64,000 nt of DNA from Gammaproteobacteria bacterium (GTDB lineage Bacteria; Pseudomonadota; Gammaproteobacteria; Poriferisulfidales; GCA-002705445), in assembly GCA_045561235.1 (NCBI GenBank), contig JBJKYB010000002.1, positions 874,942 through 938,941 on the forward strand, in the 5' to 3' direction. This document shows, piece by piece, positions 233-58,042 of the stretch (position 1 is its first letter; the number at the start of each line of letters is the position of its first letter). The notes beneath the pieces were generated by a model. The model saw only the letters and a list, made by a program, of their open reading frames with translations, did not search any database and was not told the DNA's origin. The position numbers were made by a program, and so were the translations under genes.

Positions 233-253
233 TTAACGAGCGTAACTAGCGAT

Positions 254-1189: not shown

Positions 1190-1259
1190 AAATTTTCTTT
1201 TAGTGCTAACCAAACTCTATGTTAATATAATGTAATTTTAACATCTTAAAAAACTTACA

Positions 1260-1994: not shown

Positions 1995-2034
1995 AAGTTA
2001 AGTGTATTAATAAAATGATAAATAGGAAAAACTT

Positions 2035-9404: not shown

Positions 9405-9412
9405 AAAAAATA

Positions 9413-11508: not shown

Positions 11509-11517
11509 GGAAAATAT

Positions 11518-11874: not shown

Positions 11875-11887
11875 TTAATTTGAACAT

Positions 11888-11972
11888 GCCGATGTGGTGG
11901 AATTGGTAGACACGCTGTCTTGAGGGGGCAGTGGCGAAAGCTGTGCCGGTTCGACTCCGGCCATCGGCACCA
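11888..11972 (+). tRNA. tRNA-Leu (anticodon GAG), type II with long variable arm, CCA encoded
   Basis: GCCGATGTGGTGGAATTGGTAGACAC...CTTGAGG... folds into cloverleaf; near-identical to E. coli leuU; anticodon loop CTTGAGG. Confidence 0.9.
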
Positions 11973-12170
11973 GAAAAGCTTCTTTATAGGCTTTGTATAT
12001 ACTCCCATAAAATATTTTTCACTTTAAACTATTGTAATATTTAAATAATATGTTGTAATTTTACTTAGAACTAAATGGAAATATATTATGTTAAATTAAG
12101 TAAAATTATTTTATATTTTTTTATTTCTCAGATATCATTGTTTTTTGTGACACAAGGGCGTATTAATATT

Positions 12171-12527
12171 ATGTTAAATAACTATTTTCCAATTTTATTA
12201 TTCATTATTGTCAGTATTATCATAGGTGCATTACCTATAATCGCTTCAAGAATAATAAATAAAGGTGAAAAAAATAAAGCCAAGAGCTCAGCTTATGAAT
12301 GTGGCTTTGAAAACTTTAGTGATGCTCGTATGAAATTTGATATTAGGTTTTATCTAGTAGCAATTCTATTTATTATTTTTGATTTAGAAATTGCATTCTT
12401 ATTTCCGTGGGCAGTTGCTTTAGATAGTCTAGGATTTAACGGTTTAATAGCAATGAGTATTTTTTTGATAGTTTTAGTTATAGGTTTTATATATGAGTGG
12501 AAAAAAGGAGCCCTAAACTGGGATTAA
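12171..12527 (+). CDS. nuoA: NADH-quinone oxidoreductase subunit A (start chosen at internal ATG; ORF track extends to 12075)
   Basis: 3-TM protein with conserved [25 protein letters not shown] motif; 119 aa from ATG 12171 matches typical NuoA length. Confidence 0.85.
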
Positions 12528-34735: not shown

Positions 34736-36811
34736 ATGAAACCAATAACAAAAAAGTTCCATTATGGAAATCACGAAGTAATTCTTGAGACAGGCAAAAT
34801 AGCAAGACAAGCTGATAGTGCTGTTTTAGCTAATATTGGTGGTACAGTTGTACTAACCACTGTTGTAGCAAAAGATGATGGGCAAGCAAGAGACTTTTTT
34901 CCATTAACAGTTAATTACCAAGAAAAAACTTATGCGGCTGGAAAAATTCCTGGTGGTTTTTTCAAGAGAGAAGGTAGACCAGCAGAAAAAGAAACTTTAA
35001 TTTCACGATTAATAGATAGACCAATAAGGCCATTATTCCCAAAAGAATTTACTCATGAAGTACAAGTCATATGTACTGTTATGAGTTTAAATCCAGAGAT
35101 AGATGCTGATGTAGTATCTTTAATTGGTGCATCTGCAGCACTTAAAATATCCGGAGTTCCATTTCAAGGACCACTTGGAGCTGCTAAAGTAGGTTACAAA
35201 GACGGCTCTTATTTATTAAACCCTAGTAAAACTGAATTATCTTCTTCAGATTTAGATCTTATGGTTGCAGGTACAAAAGATGGAGTACTTATGGTTGAAT
35301 CTGAAGCAAAAATGCTTAATGAAGATGTGATGCTTGGCGCAGTATCTTTTGGTCACAATGAGATGCAGGTTTTAATAGATGAGATTAATAATTTTGCAAA
35401 TGAATTTGGAGTCAAAGATTACACTTGGAATAAGCCGGTTAATGAAAATGAAAATCTAGAAAAAGAAGTTTATAGCGCATTTAAAGAAAGTATAACTGAA
35501 GCTTATTTAATATCGGATAAAGCGGAAAGAAATTTAAAAATATCTTCAATAAGACAAGATGCTGTTGAAAAATATAATACTGAAGAAGAATGTAAAAAAG
35601 ATTGTATAGAGAATTCAATTCATGATTTACAAAAAGATGTTGTTAGGAAAAATATCCTAGCAGGAAAGCCTAGAATAGATGGTAGAGATAATAAAACGGT
35701 AAGAAATATTTCAATCGAAGTAGATTTGTTACCAAAAACACATGGAAGTGCATTGTTCACAAGGGGAGAGACTCAAGCAATTGTTGTTGCAACTCTAGGT
35801 ACTGATAGAGACGGTCAGATAATTGATGCTATAGATGGAAAATACGAGGATAAATTCATGCTACATTATAATTTCCCTCCATTTTCGGTGGGAGAAACAG
35901 GTTTTGTTGGTTCTCCAAAGAGAAGAGAAATAGGGCATGGAAAATTAGCAAAAAGAGCAATAGTGCCAGTTTTACCATCACCTGATGATTTTCCATATGT
36001 TATAAGAGTAGTTTCCGAAATTACTGAATCAAATGGATCTAGTTCAATGGCAAGTGTTTGTGGGACCAGTTTATCTTTAATGGATGCAGGAGTTCCAATA
36101 ATATCTCCAGTAGCAGGCATTGCAATGGGTTTAATAAAAGAAAATGAAGATTTTGTTGTTCTTTCAGATATTCTTGGAGATGAGGATCATTTGGGTGATA
36201 TGGATTTTAAAGTAGCTGGAACTAAAGATGGAGTAACAGCCCTTCAGATGGATATTAAGATAAATGGAATAACCGAGGAGATAATGAAAATAGCTTTGGC
36301 TCAAGCAAAAGATGGTAGAGTGCATATCTTAGGAGAAATGAATAAAGTTATTAATTCCTCTCGAGAAGAAGTTTCTGAGAATGCCCCAAGGTTTGTAACC
36401 ATACAAGTTAAATCAGATAAAGTAAGAGATGTTATAGGTAAAGGTGGTGCGACAATAAGATCATTAACAGAAGAAACTGGAGCAGTTATAGATATAGATG
36501 ATACTGGAATGATCAAAATATCAGCAGTCGACAAAGATGCTGTAGAACTAGCAAAAACTAAAATTGAACAACTAACTGCTGATGTTGAAGTTGATAAAAT
36601 TTATGAAGGTAAAGTTGCAAAAATTATGGATTTTGGTGCATTTGTTACTGTTCTTCCAGGAAAGGATGGATTGGTTCATATTTCTCAAATATGCGAAGAG
36701 AGAGTTGAAAATGTTACTGATAAGGTTAAAGAAGGCGAAATTGTTAAAGTAAAAGTTCTTGAAATAGATAAACAAGGAAGAATTAAATTAACAATGAAAG
36801 GTTTAGATTAA
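34736..36811 (+). CDS. pnp: Polyribonucleotide nucleotidyltransferase (PNPase)
   Basis: Two RNase PH domains, KH and S1 domains ([13 protein letters not shown]); only 15 nt after rpsO. Confidence 0.96.
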
Positions 36812-36830
36812 ATATTTTTTTTAAGTTTTA

Positions 36831-37205
36831 ATGAAAAAAGATTGGAAAGAAATTTTAACAAAGGAAGAATTTTTTGTTTGTAGACAAAAAGGTACTGAAC
36901 CAGCTTTTTCAGGTAGTTATGACAAGTTTTTTGAAGACGGTCAGTATTTTTGTAAATGCTGTGGCAGTTATCTTTTTAATTCTAAAGACAAATTTAATTC
37001 CGGCTCAGGATGGCCAAGTTTTACCTCGCAGGCAAAAGAGGGAAACATACTTTTTTTAGAAGATAATAGCCACGGTATGCGAAGAATTGAAGTTCAATGT
37101 TCAAAATGTCGAAGTCATTTAGGGCATGTTTTTGACGATGGACCAAGCCCGTCATATAGAAGATTTTGCATAAACTCTTTAAGTCTTAAATTTAAAAAAT
37201 CTTAA
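36831..37205 (+). CDS. msrB: Peptide-methionine (R)-S-oxide reductase MsrB
   Basis: Two CxxC zinc motifs (CKCCGSY, CSKCRSHLGHVFDDGP) and GWPSF motif. Confidence 0.9.
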   Translation: MKKDWKEILTKEEFFVCRQKGTEPAFSGSYDKFFEDGQYFCKCCGSYLFNSKDKFNSGSGWPSFTSQAKEGNILFLEDNSHGMRRIEVQCSKCRSHLGHVFDDGPSPSYRRFCINSLSLKFKKS

Positions 37206-37211
37206 TATATC

Positions 37212-37230
37212 GCCTTATATATAAGGCTTT
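37212..37230 (+). terminator. Perfect palindrome GCCTTATATATAAGGC plus short T-run after msrB; candidate intrinsic terminator of the rpsO-pnp-msrB unit
   Basis: 16-nt perfect inverted repeat read directly; only 3 Ts follow, so termination efficiency uncertain. Confidence 0.35.
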
Positions 37231-37292
37231 GCAGACTATAGTTTTTTCGGTAAAATAAGGATCGAAGTTTAAAAAAATGTGAGGAGAACGAT

Positions 37293-37469
37293 ATGAAAGT
37301 ATCATGGGACGAAAGTGTTTGCATTCATGCTGGAAAATGTGTGCAAGGAGCACCAGAGGTATTTAAAGTCGAAGATGGTAAATTTGTTATCGATACATCT
37401 GCTAGTTCAGAGGAGAAAATAGCTGACGTTGTAGCAGAGTGTCCATCAGGTGCTTTAAAGATAGAATAA
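37293..37469 (+). CDS. Small (58 aa) single-cluster ferredoxin, CxxAxxC...CP type (probable 3Fe-4S); not in ORF track (<60 aa)
   Basis: GAGGAG SD 7 nt upstream of ATG; motif CIHAGKC(x)nCPSGAL with Ala in place of the second Cys, as in P450-partner 3Fe-4S ferredoxins; PEVF motif. Confidence 0.6.
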   Translation: MKVSWDESVCIHAGKCVQGAPEVFKVEDGKFVIDTSASSEEKIADVVAECPSGALKIE

Positions 37470-37502
37470 TAATTTATAACAGTATTCTCTTAGGAGGGAA
37501 AT

Positions 37503-38177
37503 ATGATCGGTGATAAGTTGGCATCGGCGATGCAATTATATGGCAATCCGAGTTGTATAAACACAGCTAAGGCATTGCAAACAGCCGCTGAAAAAGGCGT
37601 AGATATAGAAACTCATAAAATTGACAGTGGTGAGGAAGCTGCAGATATTTCTCCACTTCACAGTGCCCCAGTACTAAAAGACTTGGATAATATTGTTTAT
37701 GGTCCAAATGCTATAATCTCTTATTTAGATGACAAGGGTTTTGGTCCGTCACTAGTTCCTAGAAATGGTGTAATTAGAGCGATCATGTATCAATATGCTC
37801 ATATAGCGACAGATTACGTTCAAATGGAAGCTTACGGAATGTTAACTGGTTCTGGAGGTAATATGGATGTAGTTAACAAATCATTTGATATATTAGAAAA
37901 CATCTTAGCAAACCCGCCAGATCCAAAATTGAAAAAAGGCGTATACATTTGTGGTGAATTTTCATTAGCTGATATTCATTGGATGGCATGTGTAAATGCT
38001 TTAGAAATCTCAGGTAATGACGTAATATCGTCAAGGGCGAAAGTTAGCGAATGGTGTGCTGCTGTTAAAAGCCATCCATCAACAAGTAAAGAAGATATTA
38101 TTCCATATACGTGTCTTCCAACAAAAGAAGACGTTGATTCAGGCACATTAAGAAACGTTGGGATTAATGTAGTATAG
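37503..38177 (+). CDS. Glutathione S-transferase-fold protein (thioredoxin-like N-domain + helical C-domain)
   Basis: N-terminal LYGNPSC...APVL (cis-Pro) ...GPNAIISYL, C-terminal FSLADIHWMACVNAL N-capping-box motif; GC visibly higher than flanks. Confidence 0.6.
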   Translation: MIGDKLASAMQLYGNPSCINTAKALQTAAEKGVDIETHKIDSGEEAADISPLHSAPVLKDLDNIVYGPNAIISYLDDKGFGPSLVPRNGVIRAIMYQYAHIATDYVQMEAYGMLTGSGGNMDVVNKSFDILENILANPPDPKLKKGVYICGEFSLADIHWMACVNALEISGNDVISSRAKVSEWCAAVKSHPSTSKEDIIPYTCLPTKEDVDSGTLRNVGINVV

Positions 38178-38250
38178 GTTTTGGGTACTTGAAAATACGA
38201 CATTTTTTAACTAAATTAATTTTTTAAATACAAGGAATTAGTATATTTTT

Positions 38251-39318
38251 ATGTTTGGATTAGGTAAAAAGAAGGGCCCTCAGGAAGTCAGCTTAAATTC
38301 TGATCAATATAAATTCGAAGTTGACCCTGACCAAAATATTTTAGATGCTGCTTTAAAAGCTGGAGTCGCATTCCCGCATGATTGTAGAGTTGGTAGCTGT
38401 GGGTCATGCGCGTGCAAATTAACAGATGGTAAAATTACCGCTACAGCTGATTTTAGCTATGTATTAGATGGCGATCAGTTAAAGGATGGAATGATATTAG
38501 CTTGCCAGTCTCGAGCTAAAACTCCTTTAAGTATCGCTGTTGAAATTGATGGGGAAGCTAAAACTAGCCCAACAAAATCATACCAAGGAGTTGTAAATAA
38601 GATTACACCATTAACACACGATATAATGGAATTAACCGTAGGAGTTGAAGGTTTAGAACATAACGGATATGCGGGACAATACTCTGAACTTATGGTGAAG
38701 CAAGTAGGATCTTCAAGATCTTATTCATTTGCCAAAGCCCCTCAAAATGAAAATCCTAACGAATTATCATTTTTTATAAGAAATGTTCCAAAAGGAAGAT
38801 TTAGTAAATGGCTTTTTGGTAAAGATCCTACTGGGCAAAAACTAGAAGTTAATACTCCGTTTGGATCGTTTTATTATCGTGATGGCAAAGGTCCAATGGT
38901 TTGCATTGCGGGTGGTAGTGGCATGAGTGCTGTAAAAGCTATCTTAGAACAAGCCGCAATAGATCAAGTTGAAAGGGATGCTATATATTTGTTTGGAGCA
39001 AGAACACAAGAGGACATATATAGTAGATCCGATTTAGAAGATATTCAGAAAAAATGGAACCCTAATTATAAATTTGAGTTTGTTTATGTTTTAAATATGG
39101 AGCCAGAAGATTCTGACTGGACTGGTGCTAGAGGTATGGTAACTGACTTTTTAAAATCAGATTATATAGAAAAAGGTAAATTGAATATGAAAGAGTGTCA
39201 AGGTTATTTATGTGGCCCACCACCTATGATAGACGCCGCCATAAAAGAATTTACAGCTGAAGGCATGTCAAATGAAGAGATATTCTTTGATAAATTCTTA
39301 GATTCAGGGTCAAAATAA
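38251..39318 (+). CDS. NAD(P)H-dependent oxidoreductase: N-terminal plant-type 2Fe-2S ferredoxin fused to FNR-like FAD/NAD-binding domain (oxygenase-reductase / AscD type)
   Basis: CRVGSCGSCACKL...LACQ 2Fe-2S motif; RSYSFA FAD motif; IAGGSGMS NAD motif; C-terminal CGPPPM; no TM segment so not NqrF. Confidence 0.75.
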   Translation: MFGLGKKKGPQEVSLNSDQYKFEVDPDQNILDAALKAGVAFPHDCRVGSCGSCACKLTDGKITATADFSYVLDGDQLKDGMILACQSRAKTPLSIAVEIDGEAKTSPTKSYQGVVNKITPLTHDIMELTVGVEGLEHNGYAGQYSELMVKQVGSSRSYSFAKAPQNENPNELSFFIRNVPKGRFSKWLFGKDPTGQKLEVNTPFGSFYYRDGKGPMVCIAGGSGMSAVKAILEQAAIDQVERDAIYLFGARTQEDIYSRSDLEDIQKKWNPNYKFEFVYVLNMEPEDSDWTGARGMVTDFLKSDYIEKGKLNMKECQGYLCGPPPMIDAAIKEFTAEGMSNEEIFFDKFLDSGSK

Positions 39319-39386
39319 AAAAAATTGGAAAATTTTGCTATTATTTGTAATATAATGACAAAATATTTCTAAAGAGGAGAGCTTAA

Positions 39387-39614
39387 GTGAGAGAATATAT
39401 AGCAGCAATAGTTATGATAGTTTTTACATCCTTGTGTTTTTGGGGAATGAACGTATTTGGATTTCAAAATAATCCGCACGACATTCTTTGGTCTATAGGT
39501 GCCGGACTAGCCCTTTTAATTATACTTCTAATTAATGTTTATATTTATTTTGTAATTTGTAAAGAAACACCTTGGACATGGAAAAATGAAGAGTCTAGTG
39601 GTCAAGACGAGTAA
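39387..39614 (+). CDS. Small hypothetical 2-TM membrane protein (75 aa), GTG start
   Basis: Strong SD AGAGGAGA 6 nt upstream; two hydrophobic helices; 3' end overlaps xseA 3' end convergently by 20 nt. Confidence 0.45.
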   Translation: MREYIAAIVMIVFTSLCFWGMNVFGFQNNPHDILWSIGAGLALLIILLINVYIYFVICKETPWTWKNEESSGQDE

Positions 39615-40947
39615 TCTTCTTAACACTAGATGTAACTTCACCATCTTTAATTCTAATTTTAATATCACTTTTAATTTTAAAGTTTGAAATCTTATTAGCA
39701 ATTTTTCCATTTGAATATATTAATGAGTAACCTTTATCTAATATATTTAATGGACTTATATCTTTAATAGTATTTTTTTTTAAATTTAAAGAATTTTTAT
39801 TACTATTTATAATATTTAAAAAAAGGTTTTTAATAAATTCTTTATTATTATTTAGTTTAGATTGTAGCTCAAAAATTTTTGTCTGTGGATTTTCATTTTT
39901 TAATTGAATCATAAAATTATTTATTTCATTTTTTTCATGAATCAGATTTGAAAGTAATTTTGATCTAAGTGCTTCTTGAAATAATTCAATTTTTTGATAA
40001 TAGTTATCTATTTTTGTTAATGGATTATTATTATCTATGACATTTATTTTTTCTCTCAACTGGTATTTTAAATTATTTACATGTGTTTTTATTATATTTA
40101 TAAGATTATTTTTATACTCGTCTAAAGAATTTTGCAAATCATTCGAAGTTATACTTGTTGCGATTTCAGCAGCCTCAGATGGTGTCGCTGACCTCATATC
40201 TGATACTAAATCAGCGATTGTTGTATCAGTCTCATGACCTATTGCTGTAATAATTGGTATTTTTGAATTATATATTTGCCTTGCTAGGTATTCGTTATTA
40301 TATTCTATTAGATCTTCAAGCGAACCTCCTCCTCTAGCAATTATAATTATGTCAGATGTATTTTTTTTATTAATAGTTACAAGCTGCTTTATAATACTTG
40401 TTGCGCAATTTTTACCTTGGACATTACAAGCAAATACTTCAACGTTAATTCCGGAAACCCTTCGGTTTAGTATTTTTAATATATCTTGTAATACAGAACC
40501 TGTTAAAGAGGTAATTATAGATATATTTTTAGGGTATATGGGTAACTCTTTTTTGAATTTTGTTTCAAATAAACCTTCATTTTTTAACTTGAGTTTTAGT
40601 TTCTCAAATAGTTCATGAAATTCTCCAGCACCTGTAGAAGACATTCCAATAATATCTAGTTGATATGAGCCAGTCTTTTCATAAAAAGAGACTTTGGATT
40701 TAATTATTACCTTTAGTCCTATTTCTGGTTCTAAATCTAAGTTATTAACTCTTGAGTTCCATAACGTGCACCTTACAGAGCATTTTTCGTCTTTTAGAGT
40801 AATATAAATATGGCCTAGCTGGCTTTTTTGGAGTTGAGATATTTCTCCTTCAACCATTATATAACTAACAAATGATGTTTCTAAAACTTCTTTTATATAT
40901 CTATTAACATCACTTACACTATATATCTCACTATCACTATTTTTCAT
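39595..40947 (-). CDS. xseA: Exodeoxyribonuclease VII large subunit
   Basis: N-terminal OB fold (VEGEISQ...YITLKDE) and catalytic core (IIARGGGSLEDL); divergent from guaB exactly as in E. coli. Confidence 0.92.
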   Translation of the reverse strand: MKNSDSEIYSVSDVNRYIKEVLETSFVSYIMVEGEISQLQKSQLGHIYITLKDEKCSVRCTLWNSRVNNLDLEPEIGLKVIIKSKVSFYEKTGSYQLDIIGMSSTGAGEFHELFEKLKLKLKNEGLFETKFKKELPIYPKNISIITSLTGSVLQDILKILNRRVSGINVEVFACNVQGKNCATSIIKQLVTINKKNTSDIIIIARGGGSLEDLIEYNNEYLARQIYNSKIPIITAIGHETDTTIADLVSDMRSATPSEAAEIATSITSNDLQNSLDEYKNNLINIIKTHVNNLKYQLREKINVIDNNNPLTKIDNYYQKIELFQEALRSKLLSNLIHEKNEINNFMIQLKNENPQTKIFELQSKLNNNKEFIKNLFLNIINSNKNSLNLKKNTIKDISPLNILDKGYSLIYSNGKIANKISNFKIKSDIKIRIKDGEVTSSVKKITRLDH

Positions 40948-45598: not shown

Positions 45599-46525
45599 AT
45601 GCTTAATAATAATAATTATAATAATTTTAAAAAAATTTTATTCTTTACTTTTACCTTTTGTCTTTTTACAAATGCTTTTTCTGGCGCTGATGATGAAATT
45701 ATAATTGCTGCGGAGAAGAAAGCGCTAAATGCTACAAACGGGATATTAAGTACACTAACTTCAGATTTAACCGAAAGCTTAAAAAAATTCGAGAGTGTTA
45801 AGTATTTAGACATTAAAATTGACGTTCAAGAGCATTATAACCCTGCATTCAGTATTACAAATTTAAACAGCTTGTTTGAAAGAGATACCTCTGCATTTTT
45901 TAATCAAAATACCTTAACCCATAATAAAGATGAACAAACTATAAATTTTGGATTAGGATATAGAAAACTTTTGAATGATGATAAATTACTTTTAGGTGCT
46001 AACATTTTCTATGACTATGCTTTTGATGATAACCATAGAAGGTTGGGTTTAGGTGTTGAAGCAATATCAAGTGTATTTGATCTTAGAGGTAATTTATACG
46101 AAGCTGAAAGTGATGTAGTCACTTTAACAGATGGCTCGACGGAAGAAGCTTTAGATGGTTGGGATGCAAGACTTGATTATCATATACCAGTAGGCTTTGA
46201 TTTAAGAGTATTTGGCACATATTTTGATTGGGAAAATAGTGCGAAAACTTATGAAAATAAAGGTGAACAATACGGTTTAGCAGGACAATATGGTTTGATT
46301 AAGTTTGAAGTCGGTTATAGAGACGAAGATAATAGAAAAAAAGATGCTTTTGCAAATTTGAGCTTAGTAATTCCTCTAGGTTCTGTAGCAACATCAAATG
46401 TTGTTCCAAGGGGCATGATGGAATTGGTAAGTGTTAGAGATCAATTATATGAGCCCGTTGAGAGAGAAAATAGAATAAGAGTTGTAAAAGTTTCTGCTGG
46501 TAGTGTGATCGTAAGTGGATTTTAA
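45599..46525 (+). CDS. Outer-membrane beta-barrel protein resembling the inverse-autotransporter (intimin/invasin) beta-domain, but stand-alone (308 aa)
   Basis: Sec signal peptide; motif block LGANIFYDYAFDDNHRRLGLGVEAI...LRGNLYEAES...DGWDARLDYHIPVGF...FGTYFDWENS recalls the IAT beta-domain consensus; C-terminal aromatic (SGF). Confidence 0.5.
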   Translation: MLNNNNYNNFKKILFFTFTFCLFTNAFSGADDEIIIAAEKKALNATNGILSTLTSDLTESLKKFESVKYLDIKIDVQEHYNPAFSITNLNSLFERDTSAFFNQNTLTHNKDEQTINFGLGYRKLLNDDKLLLGANIFYDYAFDDNHRRLGLGVEAISSVFDLRGNLYEAESDVVTLTDGSTEEALDGWDARLDYHIPVGFDLRVFGTYFDWENSAKTYENKGEQYGLAGQYGLIKFEVGYRDEDNRKKDAFANLSLVIPLGSVATSNVVPRGMMELVSVRDQLYEPVERENRIRVVKVSAGSVIVSGF

Positions 46526-47640
46526 TGGGAGATACTATGTGCAAATCTGTAAAATTATTTTTATCATTATTGACTTTATTATTTTTTGTAAGCAACTCTG
46601 TTTATGCAGACACTCTTGGTGACGCGATAGATGCCGAAGGATGTGGAGATAGCGATACCGCATCTTGCTCAGGCGAATGTACCCAAACAAATAATGTTAT
46701 TACGATTGCAACTTCTGGTAATGATGATGGTGGGGTAACAGATGCAGATAGTGGTAATGTGAAAAACTTTTGTAATGAAAAGCCTGATGAATATCGTATT
46801 ACTTTTTATAAAGCGGGGTTATGTAAAATTGACCCTTTTGATTCAACTGCTACATCTAATCCAACTTCGGCTTCAAACTGTTACAATTTTTTTGTAGATG
46901 AAAGTGGCAAAGCGATAACTCTTGCTTATGATGATGATACTAGCTTAATTAGTCAAACTGGTAGCCTAATCTCAGGAAATCTTAACTTTGAATTAGGCAC
47001 GTATAATTTTGCTTACGTAATTGTTGACAATCACCTTGAAATTAAGCATCAACAAACTTTTAGTGAAGCTATGAAAGGGTATCATGTTAATGGGTCTGAT
47101 TATAGCTCAGGCGTCACATGCTGGACAAATGGTATTGTAACAACTTACACAAATGCAACAGGTGCTCAACGTGGCTATAACGCAGCTACCGTAAAATCTT
47201 ATGGTAACGATAGTAGCAGCACCTCCTCATTAGCAATGACATGCGGTGAAACTTCAGATGCTGCTCCAGTTTTTAATACAGAAATAATTGAAAATTTAGC
47301 TGCTGATCCAACGTTTCCCGATGGGAATGAAAACTCAACATTTTCAGCAATATTTGCATCAACCTATCAAACAATCACTGGAACATCAGATAAAGGTGTT
47401 GGAAAATTGTTGCAAGATGACGATTTAACTACAGCAACTAGTCATACAAATGCAGCGAGAATTTTTTATCCTGTTCAACTTGCGAACCCTCTTATTGTTA
47501 CTCCGGATATTAAAACATTTGAAATGTCTTTCGGTATATCTGGCTCTGTAAGTATTGATTTTACAACAGATGGATCTAATAATCTTATAAATTTAAAAGC
47601 TGGCGCTGATCCTTTTACAATGAAATTTAGCGCTGAATAA
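46525..47640 (+). CDS. Secreted acidic Cys/Thr/Ser-rich protein (possible surface/adhesin-like partner); ATG overlaps upstream stop (TAATG); alternative start ATG 46537
   Basis: Own Sec signal (MCKSVKLFLSLLTLLFFVSNSVYA|DT), 9 Cys, T/S/G/D-rich; GC much higher than surroundings. Confidence 0.6.
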   Translation: MGDTMCKSVKLFLSLLTLLFFVSNSVYADTLGDAIDAEGCGDSDTASCSGECTQTNNVITIATSGNDDGGVTDADSGNVKNFCNEKPDEYRITFYKAGLCKIDPFDSTATSNPTSASNCYNFFVDESGKAITLAYDDDTSLISQTGSLISGNLNFELGTYNFAYVIVDNHLEIKHQQTFSEAMKGYHVNGSDYSSGVTCWTNGIVTTYTNATGAQRGYNAATVKSYGNDSSSTSSLAMTCGETSDAAPVFNTEIIENLAADPTFPDGNENSTFSAIFASTYQTITGTSDKGVGKLLQDDDLTTATSHTNAARIFYPVQLANPLIVTPDIKTFEMSFGISGSVSIDFTTDGSNNLINLKAGADPFTMKFSAE

Positions 47641-48396: not shown

Positions 48397-48945
48397 TTAT
48401 ATTTTGCCATCCAATCCCATTTGATAATATTTATGAACTATACTTTCTTGATTTTCTAGCAACCAATCAATACTAGGTTCATTTTTCATTGCTTTTTGAA
48501 TTGCTTGTGCAGTAGCTTTTCTGTGAATATCAAACAAAATTTTATGATCAAGATTATCGTCGTCGATTACTGATGGATTTAACCATACTGAAACTATAAT
48601 ACCTAAATCATTTGCTTTTTCTTTTGGAATATCCCCATTTCTAACAGCATCAAGAACACCGTTCGCAATAGCTCCTTGAACTGTTCCCATTAATATATTG
48701 GTATATTTTGTATCTTTGACGGTAACCTTGCTCACCATCAAAGTTGCAGGCTTAACCATAATATCTGTATTCATAATTGCTAAAACTCTTGAATGACCTT
48801 TAACTTGATCACCAAGAAGTGTCGCAAATGCTGTTCCAACAGGGCCGTCAAGCTCTCCAATCACTACTTCAGGCTCTGCTGCTGTTCCTGGAGGTCCGCC
48901 AGCAACCAAAGATTCAGCAACCCTCATTACAATTCTATCACTCAT
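48397..48945 (-). CDS. Formaldehyde-activating enzyme (Fae) family protein
   Basis: 182 aa collinear with H4MPT-dependent Fae (VAESLVAGG..., VVIGELDGPVGTAF, KPATLMVSKVTV, GAIANGVLDAVRNGDIP, EPS...); GC clearly above local background. Confidence 0.65.
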   Translation of the reverse strand: MSDRIVMRVAESLVAGGPPGTAAEPEVVIGELDGPVGTAFATLLGDQVKGHSRVLAIMNTDIMVKPATLMVSKVTVKDTKYTNILMGTVQGAIANGVLDAVRNGDIPKEKANDLGIIVSVWLNPSVIDDDNLDHKILFDIHRKATAQAIQKAMKNEPSIDWLLENQESIVHKYYQMGLDGKI

Positions 48946-50518: not shown

Positions 50519-52330
50519 ATGGCTACTATTCCAGGTTTAGTGCTTTCGCATAATCAAAAGCATCCCGATGGCATTGCCCTAAGATACAAACAATTAGGCA
50601 TATGGAATTCATATAATTGGGCTGATTATTATCGCGAAGTGAACTTAATAGCAAATGCTTTAAAGTCTCTTTCTATTAAAAAAGGCAGTATAATTGCGGT
50701 TTATGGAAACAATGTTCCCAAACTTATTTTTTCTATCGCTGCAATTCAATCTTTAGGCGCTATTGTGGTTCCTATTCATCCGGAATCAACAGGGGAAGAA
50801 TTAGAAAAAATCCTAGCAGGTTCAAAAGCAGAAATTTTAATAGCTGAAGACCAACAACAGGTTGATACATTTTTAGATATAAAGTCTGATTGCGAAATTA
50901 AAAGTCTTATTTATTTAGATGGAAGAGGAATGTCTAAATACTCAAATGACATATTGTTTTCATATGATAATCTTATAGAAAAATCAAATGAATCAAGTAT
51001 AGAAAATGATATAAACTCTATTAGTGAAAATGATATTGCTTTTTATCTTTATGATGAATATGAAGATTCAATTTATAAAGTTTCTCACGCGGCAATAATT
51101 AATAATAGCTCGAAAATCATCACTTTAAATAATTTGACAGAAAAAGACTCTATTGTTTCCTTTCTGCCGTTGTCAATACCAACAAATTTACTATTTACAT
51201 TTGTTACTTCCTTGACAAGCGGAATGTCGTTAAATTTACCTGAAAGTAACCAAACTATAGAAAAAGATTTGCAAGAAATAGGCCCAACAATATTATATGC
51301 ACCTTCTTTTGTATATAAACATATTATTACATCAATAAGTTACAGAATAGAATCTGCAACACAATCTAACTATGATAGATATATGAAACATTATGAAATA
51401 TTAATGGATACTTATAATAAAGAAGTAAGTGGGGAAAATTCAACACTGGATAAAATAAAAAAAATGTGGGTTATGCTTACAACGTTTGCTCCAGCCAAGA
51501 ACGTATTTGGCTTAACAAATATAAAGCATGCCTTTGTAAGTGATGGGGTTCTATCAAAAGTAAACTTCGACTTCTTTCATGCGATAGGTGTTGAGATACA
51601 ACATTCTTTTGGACAAGCTTCATCCTGTGGATGTATTTCCGTCCAACCAGATCATTCTGTTTCTTCAGAAAATGTTGGTTCGGCGATGGCAGGTAATGAA
51701 ATTATGATCAATGACAATTCAGAAGTTTGTTTTAAATCAGACTGCTTAGCAGAACTGTTAAATGGTGAAGCAAGTTCCCAAGATGGGTGGGTGAACTCTG
51801 GTTTCATTGGTAGCCTTGACGATTCAAAAAATATTGTAATTAGTGGAAGAACCGAAGATGTAATTTCCTTAAAATCTGGTAAACAATTTTCACCTGAAAG
51901 TATAGAAAATTTAATTTCTTGTTCACCATTTGTGAAATCTGCAGTAGTTGTCGGAAACAATCAAGAATCGAACTCTGCAATCGTTGTAATAGATCCAAAT
52001 TCAGTAAACTCATGGGCTGATAGAAAAAATATTAGATATACCGGTTATACTGAATTAGCTGGTAAAGACGAAGTTAGAGAGCTAATAAAAGAACATATTT
52101 GTTGTGTAAATGAAACTCTCGACTCAGAGCTTAAAGTAAAAAAGTTTGTTATATTACATAGAACATTTGTAATGTCGCAAGGAGAAGTTTCAAAAACTAT
52201 GGAAGTTATGAGGAAAAATATAGAGGTAAATTTAAAGGATGTTTACCAAGCAATTGATTCTAAAAAAGATAGCTTCGAAGTAAATGATATTGATCAGTTA
52301 TCTTATGAACTTAGTTTTAATAAAATATAA
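50519..52330 (+). CDS. Adenylate-forming (AMP-binding/acyl-CoA synthetase-like) superfamily protein with degenerate core motifs
   Basis: Overall ANL-fold collinearity and length (603 aa), but P-loop TSGTTGxPKG position reads YDEYEDSIYK, YGxTE reads SFGQAS, TGD reads SGF; first gene of Liv-type ABC cluster. Confidence 0.6.
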   Translation: MATIPGLVLSHNQKHPDGIALRYKQLGIWNSYNWADYYREVNLIANALKSLSIKKGSIIAVYGNNVPKLIFSIAAIQSLGAIVVPIHPESTGEELEKILAGSKAEILIAEDQQQVDTFLDIKSDCEIKSLIYLDGRGMSKYSNDILFSYDNLIEKSNESSIENDINSISENDIAFYLYDEYEDSIYKVSHAAIINNSSKIITLNNLTEKDSIVSFLPLSIPTNLLFTFVTSLTSGMSLNLPESNQTIEKDLQEIGPTILYAPSFVYKHIITSISYRIESATQSNYDRYMKHYEILMDTYNKEVSGENSTLDKIKKMWVMLTTFAPAKNVFGLTNIKHAFVSDGVLSKVNFDFFHAIGVEIQHSFGQASSCGCISVQPDHSVSSENVGSAMAGNEIMINDNSEVCFKSDCLAELLNGEASSQDGWVNSGFIGSLDDSKNIVISGRTEDVISLKSGKQFSPESIENLISCSPFVKSAVVVGNNQESNSAIVVIDPNSVNSWADRKNIRYTGYTELAGKDEVRELIKEHICCVNETLDSELKVKKFVILHRTFVMSQGEVSKTMEVMRKNIEVNLKDVYQAIDSKKDSFEVNDIDQLSYELSFNKI

Positions 52331-52354
52331 ATTTTAATTTAAAAAGAGAATAGA

Positions 52355-53122
52355 ATGTCAGATATCTTAAAAGTAGAAAACGTAACACTTCAATTTGGTG
52401 GTGTAAAAGCAATTACTGATATTAGTTTTAATGTTAAGGAAGGTGAGATTTGTGCTGTAATTGGCCCTAATGGAGCCGGAAAAAGCTCAATGTTAAATGT
52501 TATTAATGGTGTATATCTTCCACAAATAGGAACAGTTACTTATGACGGTGTTGAGAGAAGATCTATTAATCCAAGAGATGCTGCAATTGCAGGCATGGCA
52601 AGAACATTCCAAAACATTGCGTTATTCCAAGGTATGACTGTTTTAGAAAATATTATGACAGGTAGGAATTTATTTATGAAATCGTCTTGGTTAGAACAAG
52701 GTTTAAATATCGGTAGAGCTAGACAAGAAGAAAAAGTAAATAGACTTGCAGTTGAAAAGGTAATAAAATTTTTACAAATTGAGTCTATTAGAAAAACTCC
52801 AGTAGCAAAATTACCATACGGTCTTCAAAAAAGAGTTGAGTTAGGAAGAGCATTAGTTGCAGAACCTAAGATTTTATTGCTCGATGAGCCTATGGCGGGA
52901 ATGAACTTAGAAGAAAAAGCGGATATGTCTTGTTTTATTTTGGAGATAAATAAAGAACAAGGAATTACAACTGTTATGATTGAGCATGATATGGGAGTGG
53001 TAATGGATATTTCTGATCATGTGGTAGTATTGGATTATGGAAAAAAAATAGGTGATGGTTCACCAAAAGAAGTTATGGCGAACCAAGATGTTATTGATGC
53101 ATATCTTGGAGTCAGTCACTAA
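52355..53122 (+). CDS. ABC transporter ATP-binding protein, LivG-like
   Basis: Walker A GPNGAGKSS, signature/Walker B LLLDEPMAGMN, H-loop; LivG-like C-terminal extension. Confidence 0.88.
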   Translation: MSDILKVENVTLQFGGVKAITDISFNVKEGEICAVIGPNGAGKSSMLNVINGVYLPQIGTVTYDGVERRSINPRDAAIAGMARTFQNIALFQGMTVLENIMTGRNLFMKSSWLEQGLNIGRARQEEKVNRLAVEKVIKFLQIESIRKTPVAKLPYGLQKRVELGRALVAEPKILLLDEPMAGMNLEEKADMSCFILEINKEQGITTVMIEHDMGVVMDISDHVVVLDYGKKIGDGSPKEVMANQDVIDAYLGVSH

Positions 53123-53137
53123 ATAGGGGTAATAAAA

Positions 53138-54067
53138 ATGGATTGGGTTTATTTGATAGAAGTGTTAGTAGGCGGATTAATGTCAGGAGTAATGTACTCT
53201 CTTGTAGCCATTGGTTTTGTGTTAATTTATAAATCATCAGGCATATTTAATTTCGCCCAAGGAACTATGCTTTTATTCGCCTCTTTAACTTTTGTTAAAA
53301 TGACGGAGAATGGAATAGATTTTTGGACTGCATTATTTATAGCAGCAGGCATAATGGTTATATTTGGTGTTGCAACCGAACGGTATGTAATAAGACCATT
53401 AGCAAACCAGGATCTTCTTGCTTTATTCATGGCAACAGTTGGTTTGGCTACTTTCCAAGAGGGCTTTTCTCAATTCATTTGGGATTCAGACGTTCACGGA
53501 CTGCAAATGAGCAAATTCCTTGATATAGGTTTACTTGACCCAGCGCCAATATTTATGTCAGATCATATTCCCTGGCTGGACATTTTAATTCCAAAATTTG
53601 ATATCTTTGCATCATTAGTTGCTGGATCACTTATTGTAGTTTTAGCATTCTTCTTTCAAAAAACTAAGACAGGGCTATCTTTAAGAGCGGTGTCAGACGA
53701 TCATATGGCTGCAATGGCAGTCGGTATTCCTTTACAAACAGTTTGGGCTGTGGTCTGGGCTGTTACAGGTGTTATTGCATTAGTTGCTGGTTTATTATGG
53801 GCTGAAAGAGTGAGTGTTTCATTTACGTTAATTGAAGCGGTAATGAAAGCATTGCCAGTTATTTTAATTGGCGGATTGACTTCTATTCCTGGTGCTATTA
53901 TTGGTGGATTAGTAATTGGTGTTGGTGAAAAATTAGGTGAAATCTATTTAGCTGATGTATTTGGGGGACAAGGAATAGAATTATGGTTTGCCTACTTTAT
54001 GGCATTAATATTCCTTGTATTTAGACCTCAGGGTATGTTTGGCGAAAAATTAATTGAAAGGGTATAA
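53138..54067 (+). CDS. ABC transporter permease, LivH-like
   Basis: Branched-chain amino acid permease family topology and motifs (NFAQGTMLLF, IPGAIIGG). Confidence 0.85.
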   Translation: MDWVYLIEVLVGGLMSGVMYSLVAIGFVLIYKSSGIFNFAQGTMLLFASLTFVKMTENGIDFWTALFIAAGIMVIFGVATERYVIRPLANQDLLALFMATVGLATFQEGFSQFIWDSDVHGLQMSKFLDIGLLDPAPIFMSDHIPWLDILIPKFDIFASLVAGSLIVVLAFFFQKTKTGLSLRAVSDDHMAAMAVGIPLQTVWAVVWAVTGVIALVAGLLWAERVSVSFTLIEAVMKALPVILIGGLTSIPGAIIGGLVIGVGEKLGEIYLADVFGGQGIELWFAYFMALIFLVFRPQGMFGEKLIERV

Positions 54068-54071
54068 ATAA

Positions 54072-55166
54072 ATGATATATAGAGAAACTGGAAATTTTGT
54101 AACTAACTACTTTAAAGATAGAGAAATTTTTCCAATGAAATTTGATAAAGTTGTAGTAGTGTTAGGATTACTATTTCTTTTTTTATATGTACCAACAACA
54201 TCAGAATATGTTCTAAGTGCCCATGTTATTCCAATTTTGGCTGTAGGGTTAGCAACAGTTGGTCTTAATATATTAACAGGACTAACAGGACAACTTTCAC
54301 TGGGAACTGCTGGATTTATGTGCGTAGGAGCATTTGGTACTTATAATCTTATGTTGAGAATGCCTGAAGAATTAATGTCTTTACCTTTTGCTTTGCTTCT
54401 TTCTGGTATATTTGCAGGATTGGTAGGTATTATTTTTGGTTTACCGGCTATTAGAATTAAAGGTTTTTACTTATTAGTATCTACGTTGGCAGCTCAATAT
54501 TTTGTATGGTGGTTTTTTAATTCGTACGCGTGGTTTTTAAATTACGAATCCTCAGGAGTAGTAGCTATTGCGCCAAAATTTTATGACTATTGGGGTTTAG
54601 GCGATCTGCTAGGTGTAGACATGCAAGGTTACCCAGCAAGGTATCTATTAGCTTTAACTATTTGTATAGGATTGACTTATTTTGCGAAGAACTTATTGAG
54701 AAGTAATACGGGCAGAAACTTTATGTCTGTTCGTGATAGAGATATTGCTGCCAGTGTTATGGGGATTAGCGTTCCAAGAACAAAGCTATTGGCATTCTTT
54801 GTTAGTTGTTTTTACTGTGGTGTTGCTGGCGGTATTTATTCGTTTTTATATATTGGTAATGTTGATTTAATGATTTACGAAATTGATCGTTCTTTCACAA
54901 TACTATTTATGTTAATTATTGGGGGATTGGGGTCTATCTCGGGTTCGTGGTTAGGAGCAATTTTTGTATATGAATTCCCAATTGTATTTACTTGGATAGG
55001 TGATTTTATTTTCCAAGGTGCCTTTAACACAGCTGTTGTAGAAAATGTATCAAATATGGTTTATGGTATATTTATAATTGCATTATTAATTAGGGAACCA
55101 GGTGGATTTGCGGCTTTATGGGGAACTACAAAACAAAAATTAAGAATGTGGCCATACCCACATTAA
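54072..55166 (+). CDS. ABC transporter permease, LivM-like
   Basis: LTGLTGQLSLGTAGFMCVGAFGTY motif typical of LivM permeases. Confidence 0.85.
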   Translation: MIYRETGNFVTNYFKDREIFPMKFDKVVVVLGLLFLFLYVPTTSEYVLSAHVIPILAVGLATVGLNILTGLTGQLSLGTAGFMCVGAFGTYNLMLRMPEELMSLPFALLLSGIFAGLVGIIFGLPAIRIKGFYLLVSTLAAQYFVWWFFNSYAWFLNYESSGVVAIAPKFYDYWGLGDLLGVDMQGYPARYLLALTICIGLTYFAKNLLRSNTGRNFMSVRDRDIAASVMGISVPRTKLLAFFVSCFYCGVAGGIYSFLYIGNVDLMIYEIDRSFTILFMLIIGGLGSISGSWLGAIFVYEFPIVFTWIGDFIFQGAFNTAVVENVSNMVYGIFIIALLIREPGGFAALWGTTKQKLRMWPYPH

Positions 55167-55982
55167 TTGAAAGAGGAAAAAATGTCTGAATCTTTGCTAA
55201 AAGTAAATAACATAGAAGTTGTATATAATCATGTAATTTTAGCATTACGTGGAGTTACACTTGATGTTGAAGAAGGAAAAGTGGTTTCTTTATTAGGTGC
55301 TAACGGCTCTGGAAAAACAACAACATTAAAAGCTTGTTCAAATCTGTTGCACGCCGAGCGGGGAGCAATAACAAAAGGTTCAATAGAGTATCAAGGAAAT
55401 GACATCGCAACATCCGACGCTTATAACCTTGTGAAAGACGGAGTAGTGCAGGTTCTTGAAGGTAGACATTGTTTTGCACACCTGACAGTTGAAGAAAATA
55501 TAATGACTGGCTCTTTCATCAGAGAAAATTCAAAAGAAGCAAAGCAAGATCTTGAGAGAGTTTATGATCATTTTGAAAGAATTAGGATAAGAAAAAAGAG
55601 TTTAGCTGGATTTACTTCTGGTGGTGAGCAGCAAATGATTGCGATGGGTAGAGCTCTAATGTCTAGACCAAAATTAATTTTATTAGACGAGCCCTCAATG
55701 GGTTTAGCTCCTCAGTTAGTAGAGGAAATATTTGCAATAGTAAAAAACTTAAATAAAGAAGGTGTAAGTTTCTTGATAGCAGAGCAGAATGCTATGGTAG
55801 CTCTTAAATATGCAGACGATGGTTATATAATTGAGAATGGAAGAGTAATTCTTAAAGGAAAAGCCCAAGAATTATTAGAAAGACCTGATGTAAAAGAAAT
55901 GTATTTAGGTGTTGGTGCTGAGGGTCAAACAAGTTTTAGGGATATCAAGTATTACCATAGAAGAAAACCATCATTTAGTTAA
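55167..55982 (+). CDS. ABC transporter ATP-binding protein, LivF-like
   Basis: Walker A GANGSGKTT, LSGGEQQM signature, ILLDEPSMGLAP. Confidence 0.88.
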   Translation: MKEEKMSESLLKVNNIEVVYNHVILALRGVTLDVEEGKVVSLLGANGSGKTTTLKACSNLLHAERGAITKGSIEYQGNDIATSDAYNLVKDGVVQVLEGRHCFAHLTVEENIMTGSFIRENSKEAKQDLERVYDHFERIRIRKKSLAGFTSGGEQQMIAMGRALMSRPKLILLDEPSMGLAPQLVEEIFAIVKNLNKEGVSFLIAEQNAMVALKYADDGYIIENGRVILKGKAQELLERPDVKEMYLGVGAEGQTSFRDIKYYHRRKPSFS

Positions 55983-56702: not shown

Positions 56703-58007
56703 ATGGATAGAAAAAAACAAATCAAGCAGCTAGAAGACGAATGGAAAAATAATCCTCGATGGAAGAACGTTAAAAGAGGTTATACTGCTGAAGATGTTGT
56801 AAGACTCAGAGGTTCATTTGTGCCGGAATGCAGTTTAGCAAAAAAAGGTGCAGATAAGCTGTGGTCGCTAGTTAATGGTAGCGCTAAAAAAGGTTATGTA
56901 AACAGTTTAGGAGCATTAACAGGTGGACAGGCAATGCAACAAGTTAAAGCCGGTATTGAGGCAATTTACTTATCTGGTTGGCAAGTTGCAGCGGATGCAA
57001 ATACATCAGAAACAATGTATCCCGACCAATCACTTTATGCTTATGATTCTGTTCCAACCGTAGTAAGAAGAATTAATAATAATTTTAAAAGAGCTGATGA
57101 AATTCAATGGGCAAAAGATATCAATCCTGGCCATAAAGACTATATAGATTATTTTGCACCAATTGTAGCTGATGCCGAGGCTGGATTTGGTGGCGTGCTA
57201 AATGCATTTGAATTAATGAAAAATATGATAATTAACGGAGCCGCAGGTGTACATTTTGAAGATCAATTAGCAGCTGCAAAGAAATGTGGTCATATGGGTG
57301 GTAAAGTTTTAGTACCATCGCAAGAAGCTGTTCAAAAATTAATTGCGGCAAGATTAGCTTCAGACGTAATGGGCGTCCCAACGTTATTATTAGCAAGAAC
57401 AGATGCCGAAGCTGCAAACCTAATAACTTCTGATGCTGACGAGTACGACAAGCCATTCTTAACTGGAGAAAGAACTGCTGAGGGTTTCTATAGAACGAAA
57501 AATGGAATAGATCAAGCTATATCAAGGGGTTTAGCTTATGCTCCATATGCAGATTTAATTTGGTGTGAAACAGGAACTCCTGATTTGGAATTTGCAAAAA
57601 CTTTTGCTGAGGCTATACGAGCTGAACATCCAGATCAATTATTAGCTTATAATTGTTCACCTTCATTTAATTGGAAGAAAAATTTAGACGATGCTACTAT
57701 TGCAAAATTCCAAGACGAATTGAGTGCAATGGGCTATAAATACCAATTTATAACTTTAGCAGGTGTTCATAATATGTGGTATAACATGTTCGATCTTGCT
57801 CATTCATATGCAGCTGGCGACGGGATGAAACATTATGTTGAAAAGGTCCAAGAGCCAGAGTTTGCTGCTGCTGACAAAGGATACTCATTTGTTAGCCATC
57901 AACAGGAGGTTGGTGCAGGTTATTTTGATGACGTTACGACTGTAATTCAGGGTGGAGAATCATCTGTTACAGCTTTAACGGGTTCAACTGAAGAAGAACA
58001 GTTTTAA
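56703..58007 (+). CDS. aceA: Isocitrate lyase
   Basis: Signature [13 protein letters not shown] plus full-length collinearity. Confidence 0.95.
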
Positions 58008-58042
58008 AATAACAATTTTACATAACTAGGAAGAGTTATATT

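Follow-up and report, generated by a model that had tools for sequence, protein, structure and literature searches.

The four-gene module and its products

The stretch of DNA examined here, referred to below as the window, spans 64,000 nucleotides of a gammaproteobacterial genome (Gammaproteobacteria bacterium, GCA_045561235.1; contig JBJKYB010000002.1, positions 874,942 to 938,941 of the forward strand) and contains four consecutive plus-strand genes, which code for a small ferredoxin, a protein with the fold of the glutathione transferases (GST), an NAD(P)H oxidoreductase and a two-helix membrane micro-protein. From their comparative genomics, these genes probably constitute an electron-supply and accessory module for a divergent AlkB-family membrane di-iron oxygenase, whose own gene is not linked to them here. 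A first-pass annotation of this DNA had delimited the same four open reading frames (ORFs), had assigned the domains of all four products and had described their flanks; translation and Pfam comparison bear it out on each of these points. The genes and their immediate upstream neighbor, msrB, which we list as context and for which membership in the four-gene unit is not claimed, are:

36831..37205, plus strand: msrB, separated by an 87-nucleotide gap from the ferredoxin gene (SelR, E = 2.4e-46; TIGR00357, 159 bits)
37293..37469, plus strand: Fer4_19 ferredoxin, 58 amino acids (Pfam PF06902)
37503..38177, plus strand: atypical GST-fold protein, 224 amino acids (Pfam GST_N_3, GST_N)
38251..39318, plus strand: NAD(P)H oxidoreductase, 355 amino acids (Fer2, FAD_binding_6 and NAD_binding_1)
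39387..39614, plus strand: two-helix membrane micro-protein, 75 amino acids, GTG start (family-less in Pfam and NCBIfam)

The module is preceded by the genes infB-rbfA-truB-rpsO-pnp-msrB and followed by xseA on the minus strand and then by guaB and guaA. The 3' end of the micro-protein gene overlaps that of xseA convergently by 20 nucleotides (39595-39614), with no terminator-like structure between the two genes, and no Rfam element was detected in 36700-39800 at E ≤ 1. Promoter-like sites (14, versus 12.9 in shuffled sequences) and terminator-like sites (1, versus 1.5) occur at chance level, so that the operon boundaries are not callable from such sites.

The ferredoxin matches Fer4_19 over residues 1-57 with 60.6 bits (cutoff 24, E = 1.5e-16), whereas Fer4_13 (34.3 bits) and Fer4_15 (24.1 bits), while past their cutoffs, score far lower; with Fer4_19 as the best family, the earlier assignment to the type of ferredoxin that partners with P450s loses its ground. 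The protein has three cysteines only, in the arrangement C10-I-H12-AGK-C16-x33-C50-P51, which conforms to the CxHx3Cx32-33CP motif of Fer4_19 and includes the CIHAGKC...CP (CxxAxxC...CP) signature that had been read from it before, as C10, C16 and C50. When compared with the 4Fe ferredoxin of T. maritima (1ROF), an alanine replaces the second cysteine of the CxxCxxC motif. The Cys and His residues of the motif and the CPSGAL segment are invariant in an alignment of 69 distinct orthologs. CxHx3Cx32-33CP has been described as the Fer4_19 motif, and the C-terminal Fer4_19 domain of the class E flavodiiron protein of S. wolfei binds a [3Fe-4S]1+/0 cluster with a midpoint potential of +70 mV, to which the conserved His of that domain contributes no ligand; E. 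coli YjdI is cited in the same work as spectroscopically characterized, with a similar UV-visible spectrum (bioRxiv 10.1101/2024.04.03.587993). As the window ferredoxin shares its motif with both of these Fer4_19 proteins, we predict that it carries a [3Fe-4S] cluster, the type that had already been anticipated for it, and we propose that it might act as a shuttle to an oxygenase. It differs from them in its context, the S. wolfei domain being part of a flavodiiron fusion and YjdI a stand-alone protein, with links to AlkB, a GST or an FNR protein unreported (bioRxiv 10.1101/2024.04.03.587993).

The second protein passes the Pfam cutoffs for GST_N_3 (29.4 bits, cutoff 22) and GST_N (26.5 bits, cutoff 20.9) and stays just under that for GST_C_3 (19.6 bits, cutoff 21.6), and a profile of its family matches phi-class and SspA-type GSTs in the PDB over residues 10-194 (best E = 7e-18). 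In the alignment an invariant Cys18 stands opposite the catalytic serine of the poplar and maize phi GSTs, which we take to be Ser13 in phi numbering. The cis-proline, Pro56, is also invariant, and the N-capping box is present as S154-x-x-D157, in keeping with the Ser/Cys active-site position and the SxxD box pointed out previously. The Glu-Ser dyad of the phi GSTs (LFESRAI), which binds the gamma-glutamyl group in the glutathione-binding site (G-site), is replaced by an invariant Tyr66-Gly67 (VYGxxAI). Because of the absence of this dyad we file the protein as GST-fold and not as a glutathione transferase, and the thiol-dependent chemistry once suggested for it appears doubtful. The most conserved stretches of the family are D76-A93 (DDKGFGPSLVPRNGVxRA), H191-E197 and the N- and C-termini. 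An AlphaFold2 model of the protein (predicted local distance difference test score 78.9) shows a βαβαββα secondary structure followed by helices, and its low-confidence segments, 1-7, 82-86, 196-203 and 217-224, coincide with the most conserved stretches. Segments that are conserved yet not confidently ordered are typical of partner binding; with low confidence, we thus favor docking or ligand handling among the accessory roles (docking, ligand or thiol) that the protein may have. Foldseek searches with the model returned GSTs as all of the top matches, though with template-modeling scores of only 0.3-0.4 and a root-mean-square deviation of ~11 Å; the placement of its domains relative to each other is not reliable, and the model was excluded from active-site inference.

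The third protein carries a plant-type [2Fe-2S] domain (C45-x4-C50-x2-C53...C85) at its N terminus; the FNR-like regions after it are recognizable in the translation by the motifs RSYS for FAD and GGSGMS and CGPPPM for NAD. Its scores against Fer2 (67.9 bits), FAD_binding_6 (35.3 bits) and NAD_binding_1 (66.1 bits) are all past cutoff, and this domain order is that of the oxygenase reductases of the BenC/AntC/MmoC/XylA type. It passes no NCBIfam equivalog cutoff among BenC, AntC, MmoC, PaaE and NqrF, scoring 207.7 bits against BenC (cutoff 430), 186.7 against AntC (402) and 183.2 against MmoC (500), and no AscD model is among the matches listed; identity with a specific named reductase is thus unsupported. 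Its closest solved relatives are CarAd (7c3a, 4.5e-39), the named ferredoxin reductase component of the carbazole oxygenase system, GcoB (5ogx) and BenC (1krh). The micro-protein consists of two hydrophobic helices, with a conserved K-E-x-P-W-x-W motif after the second helix in an alignment of 79 distinct sequences, and its GTG start is preceded by GAGGAG, the Shine-Dalgarno sequence that had been described as strong. No family in Pfam or NCBIfam matches it; our guess is that it might serve as a membrane tether for soluble partners.

The window offers no terminal oxygenase to this set of proteins, as had been observed at the outset: tblastn detected no AlkB-like sequence in the 64 kb, and neither a P450 nor a Rieske protein was among the Pfam matches of the 20 larger ORFs tested.

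Conservation of the module in uncultured Gammaproteobacteria

Chromosome-scale contigs of 1.6, 2.6 and 4.7 Mb encode homologs of the GST-fold protein with 52-64% identity, and the four genes are arranged there as in the window. A locus scan with the GST alignment, taking one genome per species, retained the best 80 of 168 confirmed loci, all of which come from uncultured Gammaproteobacteria; the labels they bear at NCBI are 'Thiothrix sp.', Ca. Porisulfidus, Arenicellales, Ca. Oxydemutatoraceae, Thiotrichales and Chromatiales. In total 87 loci from about 80 species were examined, with guanine-plus-cytosine (GC) contents of 31-73% and GST identities down to 50%. Searches with phmmer recovered the order ferredoxin, GST-fold protein, reductase and micro-protein in essentially every one of these loci that had enough sequence, including a homolog of the micro-protein 3' of the reductase gene in 84 of the 87, and module genes are missing mostly at contig ends. 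The median intergenic gaps are 69, 69.5 and 43 nucleotides. The first-pass annotation had allowed that the four genes might not occur together elsewhere; their co-occurrence goes far beyond chance, and by gene order and spacing the unit is a conserved predicted operon.

The GST subfamily of the module is narrow. Among 1.84 billion 50%-identity representatives it has 7 full-length members at E < 1e-60, after which comes a sister family of 236-264 amino acids at ~1e-41. This sister family was considered as a wider home for the module and rejected, the examined member (P0412, 255 amino acids) being stand-alone, with neither the module nor an AlkB-like neighbor. Longer proteins that match the GST profile are tandem or extended GSTs only, with no fusion to Fe-S, FNR or desaturase domains.

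An AlkB-like membrane oxygenase adjoins the module in relatives

We searched for a partner by clustering the neighboring ORFs of all loci. In 27 loci, a protein of 377-390 amino acids of the FA_desaturase family (PF00487) is encoded directly upstream of the ferredoxin gene. It matches the solved structures of AlkB (8sbb, E = 7.9e-27; 8f6t, E = 5.6e-24), and relatives of it are annotated by the Joint Genome Institute as alkane 1-monooxygenase. A reductase-ferredoxin pair had been taken from the start to imply a missing terminal oxygenase or desaturase, and this orphan AlkB-like gene is the conserved partner that fits that expectation. The family is characterized by the invariant boxes GHELaHTKG, HFcYAHVYNHH, NyxEHYG and RQaDHH. 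The canonical enzymes have the boxes HELxHK, EHxxGHH, LQRHSDHH and NYxEHYG. In the third of these (LQRHSDHH) the first His is replaced by an invariant Gln in RQaDHH, and thereby one position that defines AlkB is not conserved.

In 20 loci, all from one large clade, a truncated globin (Bac_globin, PF01152, 120 amino acids) is encoded between the AlkB-like protein and the ferredoxin; it could deliver O2 to the oxygenase or be involved in NO handling. For the AlkB-like protein, the globin and the micro-protein alike, NCBIfam contains no matching model. Examples of the globin gene are:

L060, 9303-9665: truncated globin
L084, 573-935: truncated globin

The most divergent branch of the GST family (L094-L096), an abundant marine lineage of 37% GC labeled Ectothiorhodospiraceae, likewise combines an AlkB-like protein (427-452 amino acids) with the Fer4_19 ferredoxin, the GST-fold protein and the Fer2/FNR reductase, in a quite different neighborhood. 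The reductase gene of L094 is in fragments in that metagenome-assembled genome (MAG) and intact in L095. After the module, L094 carries at 12027-16109 genes for SBP56 (methanethiol-oxidase family), two MauG-like di-heme peroxidases and a peroxiredoxin. In the 4.7-Mb Arenicellales genome (L001), a lipid-modification cluster is situated upstream of the AlkB-like gene and the module (1-6063) and codes for an amine-oxidase-like FAD enzyme, DUF1365, two cyclopropane-fatty-acid-synthase-like methyltransferases and DUF2878; genes for DUF1326 and PpoB2 copper-chaperone-like proteins are found downstream.

A neighbor-joining tree of the GST-fold protein and the reductase was rooted on the L094-L096 branch. 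In this simple distance tree, which is without support values, linkage of the AlkB-like gene to the module characterizes the outgroup, the ingroup clade of deepest branching and the majority of the remaining clades; all unlinked loci fall into four derived clades, one of which comprises the clade of the window together with Porisulfidus. Among 84 distinct loci, 26 are linked, 40 unlinked and 18 undecidable. This distribution suggests that the AlkB-like gene originally adjoined the module and that the adjacency has disappeared on at least four occasions.

The early advice to look for an orphan oxygenase elsewhere in the genome proved sound, as the unlinked relatives for which a match could be made do possess the AlkB-like gene. 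The AlkB-like protein P0189 and the module L003 are encoded on one contig of 2,634,738 bp, and P0225 and L082 on one of 2,108,672 bp, with matching record names in both cases; for P0443 and L058 (2,491,028 bp) and for P0451 and L071 (2,878,237 bp) the same-contig pairing rests on the identical bp count alone. The MAG JAYNQN01 has the module on JAYNQN010000002.1 (L009), with a GST-fold protein 95% identical to that of the window, and the AlkB-like P0453 on JAYNQN010000001.1 (L101). At 90% identity, P0453 falls into a cluster of 571 sequences of 32% GC, and the largest GST clusters of the window's clade sum to a similar size. From these pairings we infer that the AlkB-like gene is also present in the source genome of the window. 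No single-cell genome was found to connect the two, the places on record for P0467 being metagenome contigs.

In all of these unlinked cases the AlkB-like gene has a second conserved context, in which it occurs with a divergently transcribed gene for a MerR-family regulator of 316-330 amino acids and with a downstream gene of the TraB/PrgY/GumN family. FabA adjoins the regulator in the low-GC clade of the window and in L088, and the C-terminal two-thirds of the regulator matched no Pfam domain. The arrangement suggests regulated chemistry on lipids or hydrophobic compounds. It is located at:

L100-L109, about 8760-12210 (in L101, 8243-12210): second AlkB-like context
L088, 6360-9146: second AlkB-like context
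L090, 6804-10248: second AlkB-like context

Proposed electron flow and comparison with known systems

If the module serves the AlkB-like oxygenase, NAD(P)H would reduce the FAD of the 355-residue reductase, from which electrons would pass to its own plant-type [2Fe-2S] center and then to the 58-residue [3Fe-4S] Fer4_19 ferredoxin. The ferredoxin would take the role that the rubredoxin AlkG plays beside canonical AlkB and would reduce the di-iron center of the AlkB-like protein, at which O2 would be activated and a hydrophobic substrate oxidized, namely an alkane or alkyl chain, or possibly the acyl chain of a lipid. The GST-fold protein and the micro-protein would be obligatory-looking accessories, the former most likely acting in docking or ligand handling and the latter as a membrane tether. 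What the comparison establishes directly is the identity and order of the domains with their cofactor motifs, the strict association of the four genes, and the occurrence of the AlkB-like gene beside them or in the same genome, together with the sign from the tree that adjacency came first; how and in which order electrons flow, which cluster the ferredoxin holds, what is oxidized and what the two accessory proteins do is our inference.

Such a system would resemble the AlkB/AlkG/AlkT system of the Pseudomonas putida GPo1 type in joining a membrane class-III di-iron hydroxylase, a small soluble Fe-S carrier of single electrons and an NAD(P)H flavoprotein (PMC8918992). However, the carrier in that system is the rubredoxin AlkG and not a three-cysteine Fer4_19 ferredoxin, its reductase AlkT is of the FAD disulfide-reductase type and not a fusion of FNR and [2Fe-2S] domains, and it has no counterpart of the GST-fold protein, the micro-protein with its two transmembrane helices, the frequent truncated globin, the QxxHH box or the unlinked state of the hydroxylase seen here. 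Neither a rubredoxin (AlkG) nor a rubredoxin reductase (AlkT) is present in the four-gene module by Pfam and NCBIfam, and with the Fer4_19 ferredoxin and the FNR/Fer2 reductase in their places the system would work in an AlkB-like manner without being the canonical one. A near-zero or positive potential, as found for the flavodiiron Fer4_19 domain, would resemble that of rubredoxin.

The natural fusion protein ferr_ferrR_AlkB, which unites a ferredoxin reductase, a ferredoxin and AlkB, is active and likewise pairs an AlkB-type hydroxylase with an FNR-type reductase and a ferredoxin instead of a rubredoxin (PMC8918992). Here each component is a polypeptide of its own, a [3Fe-4S] ferredoxin comes in addition to the [2Fe-2S] center of the reductase, and the GST-fold protein and the micro-protein are added. 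Together with the match of the reductase to CarAd, the active fusion provides a precedent for the proposed chain. A further precedent is the xylene monooxygenase XylMA, in which XylA has an N-terminal plant-type [2Fe-2S] domain followed by FNR, the same domain order as in the window reductase, and supplies electrons to XylM, a membrane hydroxylase of the AlkB-like kind; the transfer is direct, neither a separate ferredoxin nor a GST or micro-protein takes part, and the system is plasmid-borne and catabolic and acts on aromatic methyl substrates. The class III Rieske-oxygenase chains, to which the best solved match of the window reductase (CarAd) belongs, are a precedent as well and lead from a reductase with FNR and [2Fe-2S] domains through a separate small ferredoxin to the oxygenase; unlike here, that ferredoxin belongs to the Rieske or plant type, and the chain ends at a soluble Rieske oxygenase. 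A GST embedded among oxygenase genes, like the GST-fold gene here, is known from the isoprene monooxygenase clusters, in which IsoI is a canonical glutathione-conjugating enzyme, genes for downstream processing follow and the oxygenase is a soluble di-iron enzyme. The GST-fold protein of the module differs in being devoid of the G-site dyad and in having no processing genes beside it.

With regard to the substrate, homology to AlkB, the NYxEHYG box and the existing annotation point to alkanes. A lipid or some other substrate is indicated by the QxxHH third box, which is typical of front-end desaturases, by the conserved FabA and MerR neighbors, by the 70-93% identity of the AlkB-like protein across lineages whose GST-fold proteins share only 50-60%, and by its occurrence in symbionts and oligotrophs with genomes of 1-3 Mb.

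Several points weigh against assigning the module to an AlkB-like oxygenase. All of the support comes from comparative genomics. The window itself is without an oxygenase gene, and the same-genome link within its clade comes from a single binned MAG, matched to it by the 95% identity of the GST-fold proteins. Linkage to the AlkB-like gene is missing from 40 of the 84 distinct loci, so that the module could serve other acceptors too, and with QxxHH in place of HxxHH in the third box the chemistry may differ from alkane hydroxylation. The sole potential available for Fer4_19, +70 mV, is that of the flavodiiron domain and may not transfer to the window ferredoxin, and we found no precedent in the literature for a GST-fold protein in an AlkB-type system. 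Finally, in the sister genomes L067 and L056 the Fer4_19 gene is missing between the AlkB-like and GST genes, while the genes for the AlkB-like protein, the GST-fold protein, the reductase and the micro-protein are retained; the 180-nucleotide gap at 9821-10001 of L067 gave no Fer4_19 match by tblastn. The ferredoxin would thus be dispensable in these two genomes or encoded elsewhere, and in view of them the reductase may be able to donate directly, in the manner of XylA.

Alternative explanations

A different function that has to be weighed, and that we regard as unlikely, is that of a stand-alone redox or detoxification module, in which electrons would go to the Cys-containing GST-fold protein or to a small-molecule, quinone or disulfide substrate of it in an oxidative-stress response independent of AlkB. 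The module is indeed highly conserved although it is unlinked in 40 of the 84 distinct loci, it has stress-type neighbors in various lineages (msrB, the truncated globin and, in the Porisulfidus clade, gloB), and the invariant Cys18 occupies the catalytic position, as in the GST classes that act as thiol transferases or reductases. However, the protein is without the Glu-Ser glutathione site and we know of no ferredoxin-driven GST. Moreover, adjacency to the AlkB-like gene looks ancestral and is met again across the deepest splits, and in every unlinked genome that could be matched (four contigs, one MAG) the AlkB-like gene was found.

We give rather little credence to the view that the reductase and the ferredoxin are a general-purpose pair for a different or additional acceptor, such as a di-iron enzyme or an Fe-S protein, to which the link with the AlkB-like protein would be merely historical. 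FNR/Fer2 reductases are promiscuous donors, those closest to the window reductase among solved structures serve Rieske oxygenases and a P450, and in the window the module lies in a housekeeping neighborhood, all of which would accord with such a pair. What it leaves unexplained is why a narrow GST subfamily and a micro-protein travel along in every genome; furthermore, the sister GST family that is without the module is also without an AlkB-like neighbor.

In the window, msrB ends 87 nucleotides before the module and shares its strand, and it is found ahead of the unit in 35 loci; this position brings to mind an alternative reductant for MsrB, with electrons passing from NAD(P)H through the reductase, the ferredoxin and the Cys-containing GST-fold protein to MsrB. 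This is very improbable, since there is no msrB at the locus of the Porisulfidus clade, at those of the Arenicellales type (L001, L067, L075, L085) or in L094-L096, and since the AlkB-like gene stands between msrB and the module in many loci.

A recently acquired genomic islet, which the GC content of the module might bring to mind, is hardly credible in the light of composition, synteny and conservation, on which horizontal transfer or recent insertion was rejected. Composition was compared with that of the 49 other genes of the window (mean GC 31.3%, standard deviation 3.8, maximum 38.2%, guaB 36.5%). The three larger module genes have 36-39% GC and the micro-protein gene 33%, against about 31% for the window as a whole. 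The module's GC at third codon positions (GC3) is 0.22-0.25, versus a mean of 0.20 and a maximum of 0.265 for the other genes. The visibly higher GC described by the first-pass annotation therefore stands when the larger genes are set against the mean, but both GC and GC3 lie inside the range of the window's genes, and the micro-protein gene is less elevated. Repeats bounding the module are AT-rich chance matches only and mark no insertion boundaries, and neither an Rfam element nor a mobile gene was found there. The pnp/msrB...xseA position of the module is shared across the whole low-GC clade (15 related species), and the Porisulfidus clade, with 55-73% GC, has it in an equivalent position, minus msrB. 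Within the low-GC clade, identities are 87-98% for the GST-fold protein, 87-98% for the ferredoxin and 82-91% for the reductase, compared with 83-91% for Pnp, 83-92% for GuaB and 55-72% for XseA. The module proteins are thus conserved like Pnp and GuaB, which fits a functional core system, and the notion that the genes had been inserted between msrB and xseA is not upheld.

Other features of the window

Some additional genes of the window are of interest in their own right. At 48397-48945 (minus strand) it encodes a formaldehyde-activating enzyme, Fae (PF08714, E = 1.2e-59), a marker for one-carbon metabolism or formaldehyde handling in this marine gammaproteobacterial genome of 31% GC; synteny of this gene (neighbor-ORF cluster 22) extends to the related loci L008-L019. 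At 45599-47640, a protein with an inverse-autotransporter beta-domain (PF11924, 308 amino acids) is followed, with a 1-nucleotide overlap, by an ORF of 371 amino acids that has no Pfam match and may be its split passenger domain. The region 50519-55982 contains a gene for an AMP-binding, acyl-CoA synthetase-like protein (603 amino acids) and, immediately after it, four genes for a branched-chain-type ABC transporter, in the order ATPase, two permeases and ATPase, with no gene for a substrate-binding protein among them. At 56703-59368, isocitrate lyase (434 amino acids) adjoins a gene of the isocitrate/isopropylmalate dehydrogenase family (441 amino acids) on the same strand, so that enzymes of the glyoxylate-shunt branch point are encoded side by side.

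Implications for marine alkB lineages

In the literature on Fer4_19, on the partner proteins of AlkB and on marine alkB lineages, we found no description of this set of partners. A 2026 study reports that the alkB genes of uncultured gammaproteobacterial orders, among them GCA-002705445, UBA4575, Ga0077536 and UBA10353, are the most expressed alkB genes in the photic ocean, and that expression of rubredoxin, the textbook electron donor of AlkB, was confined to Bacteroidota (PMC13488336). Methylotrophy together with SBP56 has been described for several of these orders (PMC8371827). We tentatively raise the possibility of a hitherto undescribed five- to six-component membrane oxygenase system, made up of the QxxHH AlkB-like protein, the [3Fe-4S] Fer4_19 ferredoxin, the FNR/[2Fe-2S] reductase, a Cys-containing GST-fold protein without a glutathione site, the micro-protein with two transmembrane helices and, in some lineages, a truncated globin. 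In such a system the GST-fold protein and the micro-protein might be obligatory subunits of structural or functional importance, and the module might represent the missing electron supply of the rubredoxin-less alkB of marine, partly methylotrophic Gammaproteobacteria, to whose orders the lineage of the window may belong.

The case illustrates how synteny in relatives can by itself assign a partner to a redox operon that stands orphaned in a streamlined genome. If the assignment is true, the class-III di-iron oxygenases would gain a new partner architecture that includes a GST-fold protein and a micro-membrane protein, and the narrow GST subfamily together with Fer4_19 would provide a specific marker set for functional systems in metagenomes. 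The main potential for alkane oxidation in the sunlit ocean is ascribed to the AlkB-type genes that uncultured marine Gammaproteobacteria carry, and the module would supply the missing partners for testing what these abundant AlkB-like enzymes oxidize, alkanes or membrane lipids.

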